Made by a program: the position numbers | NCBI GenBank assembly: GCA_964405295.1 | Contig: CAYONI010000005.1 | Location: forward strand, 1 to 61,782 | Direction of reading: 5' to 3' | Length of the DNA stretch: 61,782 nt | From: an uncultured Methanosarcinales archaeon | GTDB lineage: Archaea > Nanobdellota > Nanobdellia > Woesearchaeales > CAYZNE01 | Shown: positions 36,001 to 42,000 of the stretch, in pieces | Position numbering within the stretch: position 1 is the stretch's first letter | How the letters are laid out: each line of letters opens with the position of its first letter

Positions 36001-39000
36001 TGATAAGAGGTAAAATAGACCTATGAGACTAGATAATCCACTACGTAGATATGCTGAAAAAATAAATTCACCAAGTAATGTTCTTGATTATGAAAAAAAA
36101 TTTTCACTACCTGAAAAAATATTTAATGTAGAATCAGGATGCCCTATATGTTATTCCAATATTAAAGGAAACAGGAATATGGGATTTCACTGTGAAAAAT
36201 GCAATTTAATTTTCACAGAAAAAAATATCGTAGATACAAAGAAAATAATAAACACGAAAAAAATGAAATAATTATATTTCTATAGTATCACCAACTTCTG
36301 GGCCATAAATCTTTGTTGATTTAGGAAGATTTAATTTTGCCCATTCACAAACTGCATTAACTGCTTCAACATCTCCATGTTGGACAATTAGAGTTTTTGG
36401 TTGCATTAATTTAAGGTATTTGAAAATTTCTTCTCTTCCAAGATGACCTGAAAAAGAGAATTGTTTAACTTTACATTTTACTTCGGTTTTCCAACCTTTA
36501 ATATAAACAGAATTTTGTTCTAAAAGCATTCTTCCATTAGTATGTTTACATTGATAACCAACTAAAAATATTGCATTTTTAGGATTATGCCACATATGTT
36601 TAATATAATGAAGAACTGGTCCACCTTGAATCATTCCAGAAGTTGTTAAAATTATTTTTGGAGTTGTACTTTTTGCAATTCTATTTCTATCATTTTGAGA
36701 CAAAACAAATTTACTTTTAATAAAAAACATTTTACTCAAAATTTTCTGATTCTGAATATATTTACCTGAACCTGTAAGAACTTTTCTTGTAATTTTATTA
36801 CACATTCCATCAAAATATAATGGAGCTCTGAAACTTTTATCTTTATACAAATCATTTAACATGATTAGAAGCTCTTGTGCTCTTCCAAGTGCAAAAGTTG
36901 GAATAACAACACTCCCACCGTTGTTAATTGTTGTTTTAATATCATCAATTAATTCTTTACCAATCATTGGAGTTTTTGGCAGTCCTCTATAACCATATGT
37001 ACTTTCAACTATTAAAACATCAAGTTTACCTGCAAGCTCTTTATGATCCATTTCAGTCATAAGGTTTGTTGGTCTTGAGTTAATGTCTCCAGTATAAAGA
37101 ATTTTTTTATTATCTGATTCAATATATATAGATGCACTTCCAGGAATATGCCCTGCATTCAGAAATTTAAATTTTATTTTTCTAAAATCATACTCTTTAT
37201 CAAATTTCACAATTCTTGCTCGCTTGATAGACCTTTTAACATCAGCTCTTTCATATGCAGGATGAAGATGTTTTATTCTTGCAATTTTATATGAATCTTT
37301 AAGAAGAATTTTTGTTATTGCAATAGTTGGCTGTGTTGCAAAAATAGGAGGTAATAATTTCTTATGAAAAAGCAATGGTAATGCACCAGAATGATCAAGA
37401 TGTGCATGACTAAGAAACAATCCGTCTAAACCCTTAAGATCATCTATGACTTTTGGATAATCATATCCATGATTCTTGAATTTTATACCTGCATCAAGAA
37501 GATATTGATCGCCATGGTCAGTTACCATTTCAATACAACTTCTGCCAACTTCTTTAGCACCACCGTGGAATATTAATTTCATTTTCTTACCTCTTTAATT
37601 AAGATAACCTAATATTTAGAACATATCTTTATAAGTATTGTGGATTTTATTAAAAATTGATAACGCTTATAATAATTAATAAAAATTAACTAAATTGCAT
37701 CAATGTCTTTCATTGATTTAGAAATAATATCTTGACAATTATTGAGCATAGCAATTAATGTATCATCAGTAGTGGCTTTCTTAATTTGACCAAGACGGTC
37801 CATTAACTGTCTAAAAAATCTAATAACATCACCTTCTAATAAAGTTGTATTATCAAGAACATCAAAAATAGTTTTACCATTATAAATTGGATAAACTAAT
37901 GCAGTTAACTTGTTAAATTCTTTAAATCTTTTTTCTCTGTAAAGATAATCATTATTTTTTAATAATTTTTTAAGAGACCTAAGATCATCAGTTAAGTATT
38001 TCTCGAAGAATTTTGTCTTTTGTCTAGCTTCATAACAGAGTGCAGCGATTAACATCAAGATTTGGTATTCGTTTAAATCTTTATAAAATTCTGTTGAAAA
38101 AATTTCTCCGAAATCAATTTCATCTGCATAAATTTTAGACGAGAAAATCCCTTTTTCTGTAAGAGCAATATCTGAATTAACATAATTTAATTTCAATAGT
38201 TTCTTCTTAATATTATTGAAATTCCTAAATATAACTGACTTTTTCAAATTATTAATATGTTTACCATATTTCTGATAAGTATAAAAGTTTTTACACAAAA
38301 TTTTATTAATCTCATCCTGCTTATGCATTTTTATTAAATTAAGAACTGTATTAATAGAAAGCTTAAACTGAGACTTAATTGGGTCAACATCCTTGAAAGT
38401 TATCTTTTTCAAGTATTCGTAATCAAAATCTCTTCTATCAAGCATAACATAAACAAATCCCTCTTTGTCGATCCCTCGCCTACCAGCTCTTCCTGCAATC
38501 TGAAAAAACTCTTTTGAATTAATAAACCTAAAACTTACACCATCAAATTTTCTTATAGAATTAAAACAAACCGTTTTTGCAGGCATATTAATTCCAACAG
38601 CAAAAGTTTCAGTGGTATATAGAATTTTAATTAATCCCTTTGAAAATAACTCTTCTACAAGTTCTTTAGCTATCGGCAGTAATCCTGCATGATGGAAACC
38701 GATTCCGTTTGGAAGAACTTGCCTTAACAACTTTGTTGATTTAAGATTATTTATTTTTTTTGGGGCATTTTTTAATTTTGCTCTTATATAAGCACTTATT
38801 TCAGGATTAAATTTAAAGATTTTTTTATTAAATAAATCTCTAGCATTATCCTCACAAGTTTTTCTTGAGAATACAAAGAAGAAGCATGGAGTTTTATCCT
38901 TCATTTCTCTTACTAAATCTATATGATACGGTGCAGGAACAAACTTTCTTCGCCCTTTCCCTCCTTTTCTACCACGAGATACAGGAACCTCTGAAACATA

Positions 39001-42000
39001 CTTTATTTGTTTAAGTTGAGTAACCCCAAGTTCTGTGTCAAAAAAATTAACATGCAAGGGAACATTTCTTACATCTTGAACTATAACTTCAACAGTATGC
39101 TTATTTATATGCTGAATCCACTCAGCAAATTCATGTGCATTAGGAATTGTTGCAGACAAGCATAAGAATCTTACATTTTTATCAGAAAACATTATTGACT
39201 CTTCCCACACATATCCTCTTTCAACATCATTAATAAAATGAATTTCATCAAAAATAACATAGCCAACATCTTTTAGAGAATGATCATTTGATATAGCCAT
39301 ATTTCTGTAAATTTCTGTTGTCATAATTATTATTTGTGCTTCAGGGTTTTTGACAATATCCCCGGTCATTAAACCAACTTTATCTTTACCGTAAGAATTA
39401 CAAAATTGTTTATATTTTTGATTTGATAAAGCTTTGATTGGAGCAGTATAAATCACTCTTTGCTTTTGGCCTATAAACTTATGAATAATATAATCTGCAA
39501 TAAGTGTTTTACCAGATCCTGTAGGCGCAGAAACCACAACCGAATTGTGCCTGTCAATGCATGCAATAGAATCTTCTTGAAACTTGTCTAATGTGAAACC
39601 TTTAAACTTCATAATTCAGAATGAATAACCCCTCTTTATTAAGTTTAGGATTTTTTAGATAACTTTATATTACAGATTAATTTTTCTCTAATTATGGAAG
39701 AACATCGAGTGCAAAAATTGTTGAGTAATTATGGTTATTGCTCCAGAAGAAAAGGTGAAAGATTAATAGAGGATGGAAGAGTTAGAGTTAACAACAGAGT
39801 AATTACCATTGGAGATAAAGCAACCGAAACTGACAAGATATTTGTTGACGACAAACTCGTTAACAAAGAAAAGAAAGTTTATATCATGTTCAACAAACCA
39901 GTTGGCTGCGTAACTGCACTCACCGACGATGAATACCAAACTGTGATGGATTTTATTCAAGTGAAACAAAGAATTTTTCCTGTTGGAAGACTTGACTATA
40001 ACACTTCAGGATTACTCCTTCTAACAAACGATGGAGATTTTGCAAATAAAGTTATGCATCCAAGTAATGAAATTAACAAAACATATCTTGCAGGTGTTGA
40101 CAGAAAAATAGAAGATATAGATGTTGAAAATCTAGAGAAAGGGATTGAGCTTGAAGATGGGAAAACAAGTCCTGCAAAAGTTAGGCAGCTTGATGCAACT
40201 CATATGGAGATAACAATTCATGAAGGTAAAAATAGGATCGTTAGAAGGATGTTAAAAGAGATAGAATTCAGAGTTAGATTTCTAAAAAGAGTTAGAATTG
40301 GTCAACTTAAGCTTGCTGATATAAGAGAAGGTGAGTTTAAACATATTTCTGAGAATGCTTTGAGAAAAGTATTCTCAAAAAACTAATAGTTTTTTGGACG
40401 ATATTTCATATAAAATATCATTTGAAAAATAAAAATAAAAAAATTTAAGGCATAGCGTTTTTTATACTAGTGTAAATACCAGTACCAATACCTGCAATTG
40501 TAGCTAAAGTTTCTTTTACTTGAAATCCAAGTACAGGACTAACAATCTTATCGTTAGTAAAATTATATAATGCTTGTGGAACTTTTGCAATATCGGTCAC
40601 AACGGCCGGTACATCAGGCATAGGTGCATGAGCCATTAAATATAATGTTATACCCCCTATTAGACCTGTAGCTCCTACCTTTACAGCTAGTTGTGATCCT
40701 GATCCTAATAAATCTTTGTTATTAATCTCCTCAAAAGCCATTGCACTAGATCCTAAAAGACCTACCTGATGACCTAAATAATCAAGTGAAGGATCATGAA
40801 ATATCTCTGATGTCACAAATCCTACTACTCTTGGAATTGTATAAGCTCCACCAATTTTCAAAGTTGATTTAAGTTTTGGGCCCATTTTTTATTACCTCCG
40901 TTTATCCTAATTCTAAACGTTATAACCATATGTAGGTAGAACTTATTTATAAAGTTTTCTATATTTTTATCACTCAAAAGTGACAAAAACCCCAAAAAGC
41001 AAGGGCGTTTATAAATAAACTGCACTCAGAAGAACAACTTTCATCAAGAAAAACATAAAAAACTAAGAAACAAACTTATTCATAGGATCAAATAACTTCT
41101 TTTGTAAAGATCTAAGCTTTAGAAACTCAAGAAAACTTTTGTTCTTATCTTTCCTTATTTTATTCAATTTCTCCTCGGGCATAATTGCAAATATTTCTAA
41201 AAACATATCAATACTTTTGTCAAAAGCAACTTTATTATACTCCACAAAATCCTTTCCCGCCTCTCTCAAATTAGCAAGAAACTCCTCAAGTATATGTAAT
41301 ATTTCGTTGTCTGTAAAAAACTCATAGACTACCTTATTAAGTTCTCTTCTATCATCAAACATTTCTTTAGGAATCTTTTTTATTAAATCATCTACAGCCA
41401 CATTCCTTGTTTTAATTCTTGAAAATATCTCATAATCTTTAAACAACTTATCAGAAATCAACTCACTTAGCTTTTTCCAATTAATCTCATAGGCAACCTT
41501 TTTTCCAGATCGTGCCTTAAATAAAATATCTAAACCAATTAAAGATTCAAGCTGTCTATAGACAACTGGTATTGACTTGTTTGTCTCCTTTGCAATCTGA
41601 CTCACATAATCTATTCCTGACATAACTTTCAGAAGTATTTCATTTAATGTTTCGTTAATTAAACCCTTTTTTTGCATAAAATCACCTTTACCTTTACTGA
41701 AAACGAAACTTATATAAATAAGTTCCGATTTACCTTTACCTAAAAGGTAAACTTACCTTTGGAGGAGATAAAATGAGTTTAGAAAAAATGTTAAGCCAAG
41801 CAGAAAACAAAGCAAAAACGAAAATAGGCAATCTGCCATGGTATGCAAGACTAGCCTTTCCAGAAGAAATGACTGAAACAAAAGAACTTATCAAAAAATC
41901 AAAGCAACTTAGAAAACAAAACAGCAATTACCAAAGCAGCCCTGAATTTTATTATCAAGAAACAGAACTGATTGCTCAATCAAGAGATATAACAATTGCA

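Follow-up and report, generated by a model that had tools for sequence, protein, structure and literature searches.

An arch-less DSHCT helicase in Woesearchaeales, probably an RNA translocase of bacterial origin

The stretch of archaeal DNA analysed here (the window; 61,782 nucleotides) carries an intact gene for a superfamily 2 (SF2) helicase of 640 amino acids, P0001, which belongs to the Mtr4/Ski2/HelY family by sequence but has only a short linker at the position of the arch. We consider it probable that the protein is a stand-alone, ATP-driven 3'-to-5' RNA translocase or helicase of bacterial origin with an accessory role. The features discussed below are:

37690..39612, reverse strand: arch-less DSHCT (Mtr4/Ski2/HelY family) SF2 helicase, 640 aa (ORF without internal stop, Pfam, PDB sequence search)
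39034..39612, reverse strand: RecA1 domain, approximately residues 1–193 (Pfam DEAD 10–160; motif counts in 60 orthologues)
38428..38895, reverse strand: RecA2 domain, approximately residues 240–395 (Pfam Helicase_C 294–380; motif counts in 60 orthologues)
38188..38271, reverse strand: short linker at the arch position, residues 448–475, 28 aa (alignment lengths between fixed anchors)
37717..38163, reverse strand: DSHCT helical bundle and ratchet helix (Pfam, PDB search, orthologue alignment)
36272..37582, reverse strand: KH-less beta-CASP ribonuclease, 436 aa, a neighbour and not a conserved partner (Pfam/NCBIfam profile searches)
39694..40386, forward strand: S4 + PseudoU_synth_2 pseudouridine synthase, 230 aa, a divergent neighbour that is not conserved (Pfam)

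The architecture given in the genome-wide survey's note, a DExH core followed by a DSHCT domain with no arch, was confirmed by ORF and Pfam analysis. RecA1 retains the Q motif, Walker A, Ia, Ib, DEIH, and SAT, each intact, and motifs IV, IVa, V, and VI are present in RecA2; the motifs MTTE, LSAT, and DE[IV]H were found in 60/60 orthologues. The DSHCT domain spans residues 484–632 as previously placed (54.6 bits vs. a cut-off of 22.7), with an E-value of 1.5e-14 rather than the earlier 1.8e-15. A Pfam search of the protein gave no match to the MTR4 stalk and beta-barrel families (PF13234/PF21408), and no N-terminal arm precedes the core, RecA1 beginning at residue ~5. The predicted structure (Atlas model) had a pTM of 0.83 and a TM of 0.90 by query vs. 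an MTR4 cluster, and the predicted fold of an arch-less relative (P0151) had a pLDDT of 91. The GC3 of the gene was 0.206 vs. a genome mean of 0.214, and the amino-acid composition of the protein was flagged as atypical in the tree runs. A sigma-70 promoter and terminator scan, whose models exclude archaeal promoters, returned 22 matches vs. 26.4 expected, a chance-level result, and 0 terminators.

Where Mtr4 and Ski2 have an arch of ~240–290 aa, P0001 has a linker of ~25 residues. Measured between fixed anchors, this position holds 28 aa vs. 242–286 aa in eukaryotic rows (525 in one row) and 21–28 aa throughout the Woesearchaeales clade; between slightly different anchors it holds 18–27 residues in 60/60 orthologues. 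Most named bacterial relatives carry an insert of 130–147 aa there, several with a CxxC-x5-C motif, and a second, separate bacterial clade is likewise arch-less. In the ratchet helix, R598, Q602, and D605 align to R1026, R1030, and E1033 of yeast Mtr4, a numbering derived from spacing. The roles of these residues were taken from passages of PMC4267639, in which the ratchet glutamate (E1033/E1247) is described as invariant in Mtr4 and Ski2. The equivalent of R1026 is retained in 59/60 orthologues and the R1030 position is mostly Q (40/60). At the E1033 position, D occurs in 60/60 orthologues and most bacterial rows vs. E in 9/10 of the intact eukaryotic rows shown, so that the clade of P0001 has D in place of the invariant glutamate.

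The special closeness to eukaryotic MTR4 claimed by the survey's note did not withstand comparison with bacterial homologues, which are closer by both core score and tree. The PDB ranking behind that claim was itself reproduced: 6c90 scored 374 bits over residues 5–617, followed by full MTR4 (~360), Ski2 (308–314), Brr2 (~163), and Hel308 (133–143). It is from this ranking that we infer the COG4581-type assignment. Membership in the DSHCT family is supported. When only the core (residues 1–450) was scored, 18/20 named bacterial proteins reached 399–452 bits, compared to 316–356 for 14 named eukaryotic proteins, 340–360 for five Asgard-labelled proteins, and 289–306 for two actinobacterial HelY, in a comparison biased by the derivation of most bacterial labels from one search seeded with a near relative. 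Since these 18 score above all 14 eukaryotic proteins, the closeness to MTR4 is a database effect.

The main tree (IQ-TREE, LG+C20 PMSF; 41 rows × 605 columns) was unrooted and had no outgroup. Viral rows were omitted from it and from the approximately unbiased (AU) tests, row L200 was removed before IQ-TREE because its C-terminal part was unalignable, and cyanobacterial HelY/ISE2 was absent from all trees. Eight Woesearchaeales rows formed a group (100/99) nested within a 24-row group containing 16 bacterial-labelled or unlabelled rows (100/99), the named bacterial members of which bore Bacillota, Muiribacteriota, Riflebacteria, and Poribacteria labels. This split between the joint group and the other rows was also seen in a 76-row quick tree (SH-aLRT 100) and a 240-row FastTree, and supports the bacterial origin that had earlier been called likely in a caveat. 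The exact bacterial sister is less clear, a Bacillota-type group having a support of only 78/86. Unlabelled arch-less relatives adjoin bacterial genes, encoding LPS heptosyltransferase, ArnT, glutamate racemase, RecJ, Pal, and bacterial L13. The AU test rejected groupings of Woesearchaeales with eukaryotes (p 0.0012) and with Asgard and eukaryotes together (p 0.002).

Two assignments were discarded on these grounds. P0001 is not a eukaryotic Mtr4/Ski2 orthologue, given its place outside the eukaryotic clade, its linker, and its ratchet D; nor is it actinobacterial HelY proper, which forms a separate clade (100/100) with an arch of 206–264 aa vs. 28. Vertical descent in archaea, as a relic of the lineage from which eukaryotes obtained Mtr4 and Ski2, is most improbable and is contradicted under the tree model used. 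All the best PDB matches are MTR4/Ski2, an Asgard-labelled second archaeal group has the family, and the trees are unrooted; but both AU results, the strongly supported branch with bacterial rows, the near limitation to one order, the missing arch, and the bacterial ratchet signature argue against such descent. With unrooted trees, the direction of transfer rests on the distribution and on the arch being taken as ancestral. The best reading of the sequences is an old acquisition from bacteria with later loss of the arch: the gene would have entered an early Woesearchaeales ancestor from a bacterial group of the above type, the remaining ~120-aa arch would have been lost, and inheritance with lineage-wise losses would have followed.

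The helicase was found in 76/151 genomes of its order, identified as Woesearchaeales by the labels of homologues, in agreement with the 395/822 reported earlier, and in 2/101 genomes of another order in the class. Presence by family was mostly all-or-none (36/36, 12/12, 0/7, 0/5). Its occurrence without exception in some families (36/36) fits an important role there and counts against the accessory role preferred here. A query-based scan of viral contigs gave no helicase match, and a plasmid scan gave four partial actinobacterial matches. No report of the helicase in Woesearchaeota was found in the full-text literature, a search scope outside which lie subscription papers, the large tables of PMC7414124, and bioRxiv supplements, any of which could name the gene HelY or MTR4.

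DSHCT helicases labelled LC_3 (P0434), Hodarchaeales (P0224), and Hermodarchaeota (P0239) are, by sequence, independent of the Woesearchaeales clade. Their arch is full (246–281 aa) and includes a stalk, a beta-barrel, and a CxxC-x5-H motif, the last in common with both intact Ski2-clade rows. Placement of the Asgard group as sister to eukaryotes in a 147-row FastTree lost its support on the addition of viral rows and actinobacterial HelY, although the AU test does not reject it (p=0.21); the branching order of Asgard, actinobacterial HelY, eukaryotes, and the Woesearchaeales/bacterial group was unsettled in the 240-, 76-, and 41-row trees. Two proteins first taken as Asgard (P0250, P0255) fall in the HelY clade. 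Two or more unrelated archaeal groups thus have the family: about half of Woesearchaeales carry an arch-less, bacterial-type form, and Asgard-labelled genomes carry one with a full arch. This corrects a published boundary, in that among archaea and eukaryotes the Mtr4/Ski2 group is not limited to eukaryotes. The survey's note had correctly quoted a 2024 survey describing the Mtr4/Ski2 (COG4581) group as 'exclusively composed of eukaryal sequences' (PMC10946056), and the absence from that survey's archaeal groups holds. The surprise is smaller than was suggested, since the 2024 survey included no bacteria, named no Woesearchaeota in its table (which lists retained proteins only, so that Woesearchaeota may still have been sampled), and missed the LC_3 helicase despite including the LC_3 genome; Mtr4 in Hodarchaeales was moreover already mentioned in a 2024 preprint (bioRxiv 10.1101/2024.07.04.601786).

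By homology, the enzyme would load on a 3' single-stranded RNA tail, and ATP hydrolysis by RecA1/RecA2 would let the ratchet helix draw the strand through the ring, unwinding RNA or RNA:DNA duplexes and stripping bound proteins. Lacking both the arch and the N-terminal arm by which eukaryotic Mtr4 recruits adaptors, it is probably a dispensable accessory factor in general RNA turnover or in ribosome/mRNA remodelling.

A link to the exosome, for which the survey's note had seen no evidence, found no support. The Rrp4, Rrp41, and Rrp42 genes are indeed present and adjacent on contig C3 (Rrp41 at 256 bits, under the cut-off of 318.7), and RNase J of this genome is encoded at C1:128339–129658. Rrp41 occurred in 72/76 genomes with the helicase vs. 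72/75 without, and RNase J in 63/76 vs. 65/75; as both are near-universal (Rrp41 in 144/151 Woesearchaeales genomes, an RNase J-like gene in 128/151), this test has little power. About half of the exosome-bearing genomes have no helicase, and the 101 flanking ORFs included no exosome core subunit and one partial Toprim (DnaG-like) neighbour. Neither co-occurrence in 151 genomes nor neighbourhood thus tied the helicase to RNA decay. A bacterial helicase may nevertheless have been co-opted, docking on the Rrp4 cap or RNase J, feeding unwound RNA into decay, and so taking the role of ASH-Ski2 in Thermococcales; we regard this as unlikely. In its favour, P0001 is the only Ski2-like helicase found in its genome, and a profile search for DUF5814, which we take to be the ASH-Ski2 marker in keeping with matches in three euryarchaeal controls, gave 0/151 in Woesearchaeales, the source genome included. 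Passages of PMC7144898 tie ASH-Ski2 to aRNase J and the exosome, and others in PMC10411580 assign the eukaryotic Rrp4/EXOSC2 contact to Ile1014 of the helicase body rather than to the arch. Against it stand the results above, closest relatives in bacteria, which have no exosome, and the missing arm and arch. Were it true, however doubtful, Woesearchaeales with exosome, RNase J, and no detectable ASH-Ski2 would have stripped a bacterial HelY-like helicase to a minimal 'arch-less Mtr4', a second, independent helicase-exosome partnership. This would be the simplest system for studying that partnership and a convergent origin of a partnership central to RNA decay. If the Asgard homologues, which carry an arch, are counted as well, archaea would have seen two encounters between the family and the exosome.

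A functional RNA-processing module with the neighbouring beta-CASP RNase is highly unlikely. The two genes adjoin, and the RNase lies 107 bp downstream on the same strand, but this adjacency recurred only in G139 of the same genus, which supplied both beta-CASP genes among the 101 flanking ORFs (2/101) on one contig; a third member (G292) has another neighbour on the opposite strand, and G139 has an HTH_10 gene in place of the pseudouridine synthase. Replacement of the DNA-repair helicase Hel308, with action on DNA, is extremely unlikely. Hel308 was not found in the source genome (G000), but Hel308-like matches in 56/76 genomes with the helicase vs. 53/75 without form no exclusion pattern, HelY is unable to load on DNA according to work cited in a passage of PMC8931766, and the ratchet residue is D in the clade vs. 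W in Hel308 (passages of PMC4267639).

The proposed accessory RNA translocase, with its nearest kin bacterial and nothing tying it to the exosome, widens the range of the family and is no missing link to eukaryotes. It is uninformative on the origin of eukaryotic Mtr4/Ski2, for which the Asgard homologues might be informative and are the better target.

Among known systems, the closest are bacterial HelY-like DSHCT proteins of ~750–790 aa (with the labels above, Bacillota including Limnochordia), at 44–48% core identity; they have the same EGD...D ratchet signature and no N-terminal arm, and most of the named ones differ in having the insert at the arch position. Arch-less bacterial forms of ~625–700 aa are also among the closest and form a separate clade. 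HelY of Mycobacterium smegmatis and other actinobacteria (Uson et al. 2015, as cited in PMC8931766) is likewise a DSHCT helicase of prokaryotes that works where there is no exosome, and it has D at the E1033 position, but differs in clade, score, and its own long arch. The Asgard-labelled helicases are archaeal members of the same family, set apart by their full arch and independent clade. Hel308 and ASH-Ski2 have a Ski2-like SF2 core in common with P0001 (passages of PMC10946056, PMC7144898). P0001 differs from them in having DSHCT and no DUF5814, and in scoring 174–180 bits vs. NCBIfam cut-offs of 887–1216 (174 vs. 1200 for Hel308). It also has no cysteine-containing domain before the core, presumably the hallmark of ASH-Ski2. 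With eukaryotic Mtr4/MTREX/Dob1 and Ski2/SKIV2L it has in common the order RecA1-RecA2-winged helix-DSHCT, 39–42% core identity, and the R1026 equivalent, and it differs in the missing arch/KOW and N-terminal extension and in the R1030 and E1033 positions. P0001 is thus a natural counterpart of the engineered arch-less MTR4 (PDB 6C90), and hence a small enzyme for testing the contribution of the arch.

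The helicase P0001 is encoded by an intact reading frame, and its Pfam matches and its ranking against solved structures confirmed what the genome-wide survey's note had observed, a DSHCT helicase without the arch. Its features were:

37690–39612, minus strand: intact open reading frame of P0001, 640 aa
P0001 residues 10–160: DEAD (Pfam)
P0001 residues 294–380: Helicase_C (Pfam)
P0001 residues 484–632: DSHCT (Pfam, 54.6 bits vs. cut-off 22.7)

No Pfam match to the MTR4 stalk or beta-barrel families was found in P0001. The catalytic motifs were all retained (MTTE, LSAT and DE[IV]H, each in 60/60 sequences, i.e., P0001 and 59 loci). 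A PDB sequence search gave 374 bits for arch-deleted human MTR4, ~360 for full MTR4, 308–314 for Ski2, ~163 for Brr2 and 133–143 for Hel308, reproducing the reported precedence of MTR4 over Hel308. The note's interpretation held for family and arch absence but not for a special closeness to MTR4, which stems from PDB content. When only residues 1–450 were scored like for like, 18 of 20 named bacterial homologues (most of these names come from a search started from a single close relative) reached 399–452 bits, and all 14 named eukaryotic homologues 316–356; five Asgard-labelled homologues scored 340–360 and two actinobacterial HelY 289–306. By query TM, the Atlas model of P0001 (pTM 0.83) scored 0.90 against an MTR4 cluster and 0.86–0.98 against clusters dominated by bacteria.

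In the careful tree (PMSF, 41 rows, 605 columns), a 100/99 branch separated off the Woesearchaeales group, which sat inside a larger group of 24 rows (100/99); the members named there were Bacillota, Clostridia, Limnochorda, Muiribacteriota, Riflebacteria and Poribacteria. A 76-row quick tree and a 240-row FastTree showed the same split, with Woesearchaeales among bacterial rows; all trees were unrooted and without cyanobacterial rows, and the bacterial sister branch reached only 78/86. Arch-less relatives without names had bacterial flanking genes. Sisterhood to eukaryotes was rejected (AU p 0.0012, and the 100/99 branch with bacterial rows), as was a Woesearchaeales, Asgard and eukaryote grouping (p 0.002). 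Transfer probably ran from bacteria to Woesearchaeales, since the archaeal range is narrow and the bacterial one broad, and since the arch is present in every other main group. P0001 belongs to a known family, as a bacterial-type member that naturally lacks the arch. One arch-less bacterial clade (L158, L166, L169, L175, L209) recurrently lay beside a thermonuclease-like and/or macrodomain gene and YjbQ.

The window corresponds to contig C5 in a 1.27 Mb genome (96.8% complete). The order is called Woesearchaeales here because the labels of close homologues read Candidatus Woesearchaeota or Nanoarchaeota. The Woesearchaeales-type gene is borne by records (L001–L004, L006) titled 'uncultured Methanosarcinales archaeon'; two of these records are identical to contigs of genomes G139 and G292 in the same genus, and the titles are therefore probably wrong. 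The helicase was present in 76/151 genomes of the order (high-quality subset, 60/116) and in 132/301 of the high-quality genomes in its phylum, 131 belonging to the order; tallies include unpublished genomes G112, G121, G132 and G390, on which no conclusion depends. Another order of the class had it in 2/101 genomes, and one of these two genes, placed in the trees, nested inside the Woesearchaeales clade. Families were mostly all-or-none (36/36, 12/12, 5/5 and 7/8 vs. 0/7, 0/5, 0/5 and 1/10), with one intermediate (11/24). Median genome size was somewhat higher in carriers (1.3 vs. 1.1 Mb; kin are not independent). This distribution, with a helicase GC3 typical for its genome, is what an old gene would show if passed down with losses. 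A Thermoplasmatota-labelled protein (P0471) and genes of G296 (L276) and G246 (L055), both from another order of the class, fell close to or within the Woesearchaeales clade, as either secondary transfers or binning errors. In one Woesearchaeales lineage (L004–L006, L039, L042), a bacterial-type GroES (Cpn10) gene followed the helicase.

A KH-less beta-CASP RNase gene lies 107 bp downstream of the helicase; contig C1 carries a second beta-CASP gene (635-aa frame) and an RNase J-like gene, and contig C3 clusters SBDS, Rrp4, Rrp41 and Rrp42. On visual inspection, the beta-CASP gene carries a Shine-Dalgarno-like site of its own and, upstream and following T-rich tracts, a TATA-like element (37583–37689), and a TATA-like element lies ~25 bases ahead of the helicase start (39613–39693); these candidate elements would fit separate transcripts. 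The beta-CASP adjacency pointed out in the note recurred only in same-genus G139. Among 101 flanking ORFs from 66 loci (a few duplicating a contig; ~30 loci covering the downstream side only), beta-CASP accounted for two, both on one G139 contig, exosome core subunits for none, and the remainder were of scattered kinds; the third genus member had a different neighbour. Across the 151 genomes, those with and without the helicase carried Rrp41 in 72/76 and 72/75, RNase J-like genes in 63/76 and 65/75, and Hel308-like matches in 56/76 and 53/75. Hel308 looked split in this order (L230–L241): most of the 109 matching genomes had a ~500-aa ORF covering profile positions ~230–700, in a few a separate ORF of ~225 aa spanned positions 8–216, and profile comparison found no match in the window's genome. 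DUF5814, presumably the N-terminal domain of ASH-Ski2, occurred in 0/151 genomes, with three euryarchaeal controls positive. Recruitment of the helicase by the exosome or RNase J in place of ASH-Ski2 would suit this empty slot (cf. passages of PMC7144898) and the arch-independent contact of eukaryotic Mtr4 with Rrp4 described in part of PMC10411580; however, given the alike Rrp41 and RNase J frequencies and the lack of exosome core subunits among these neighbours, we consider it rather unlikely. Flat co-occurrence and scattered neighbours give no genomic sign of partnership, co-occurrence being a weak test because both the exosome and RNase J occur almost throughout the order.

P0001 represents the family in an archaeal order from which we found no published report of such a helicase, although supplementary tables may list one. 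The genomes searched in PMC10946056 comprised 219 complete archaeal ones, 75 from Asgard and 10 from eukaryotes, with no bacteria; the study retained no archaeal COG4581 protein, and its table lists LC_3 but no 'Woesearchaeota'. Because a 1009-aa LC_3-labelled DSHCT helicase (P0434) exists, its description of the group as exclusively eukaryal fails even within its own genome set, if the label is right. In bioRxiv 10.1101/2024.07.04.601786, Mtr4 receives one mention, in connection with a Hodarchaeales guild. Asgard-labelled helicases (P0434, P0224, P0239, P0430, P0425 and relatives) have 840–1010 aa and a full Mtr4-like arch. In the AlphaFold model of P0434 (pLDDT 82, pTM 0.70), the insert contains helical stalks and a beta-barrel; the model matched Mtr4 best (Foldseek E 8e-54; VIA Z 39.9) and aligned up to 834 residues on arch-bearing vs. 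~630–650 on arch-less chains. CxxC-x5-H occurred in the insert of 7/7 Asgard-group and 2/2 intact Ski2-clade rows examined. Hodarchaeales-, LC_3-, Hodarchaeota-, Hermodarchaeota- and Promethearchaeota-labelled proteins and unlabelled relatives formed one group (96/85; six rows in the careful tree, only two labelled). Asgard plus eukaryotes was absent from the best tree and was not rejected (AU p 0.21); as a lead, Asgard homologues are better candidates than P0001 for the origin of Mtr4/Ski2. Giant-virus contigs (L068–L147, IMG/VR, many GVMAG) encoded 770–900-aa DSHCT helicases with a 111–125-residue insert, six of which grouped with eukaryotic Mtr4 and Ski2 (SH-aLRT 99, quick tree, long branches).

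The motor of P0001 is intact, DSHCT is present, the arch is absent and kinship is bacterial-type. By analogy with Mtr4, Ski2 and HelY (HelY as cited in passages of PMC8931766), it would load onto a 3' RNA overhang, translocate 3'-5' with ATP and unwind duplexes of RNA and of RNA:DNA, probably with no preference for poly(A), in accessory RNA turnover or RNP remodelling; it may be dispensable in half of the order. According to sections of PMC4267639, arch-less Mtr4 unwinds near-normally and R1030 has a part in poly(A) preference. In the 60 sequences, the R1026-equivalent was R in 59, and the R1030-equivalent Q in 40 and R in 16 (yeast numbering was inferred from PDB alignment and spacing in that source). 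The same sections give E at position 1033 in all Mtr4 and Ski2, whereas the equivalent was D in 60/60 here. Between fixed alignment anchors flanking the arch position, Woesearchaeales-group helicases have 21–28 residues, in contrast to 242–286 in eukaryotes (one 525), 246–281 in the Asgard group and 206–264 in the actinobacterial HelY clade; most named bacterial relatives have 130–147 (one 68), and a separate clade without names is also short (22–36).
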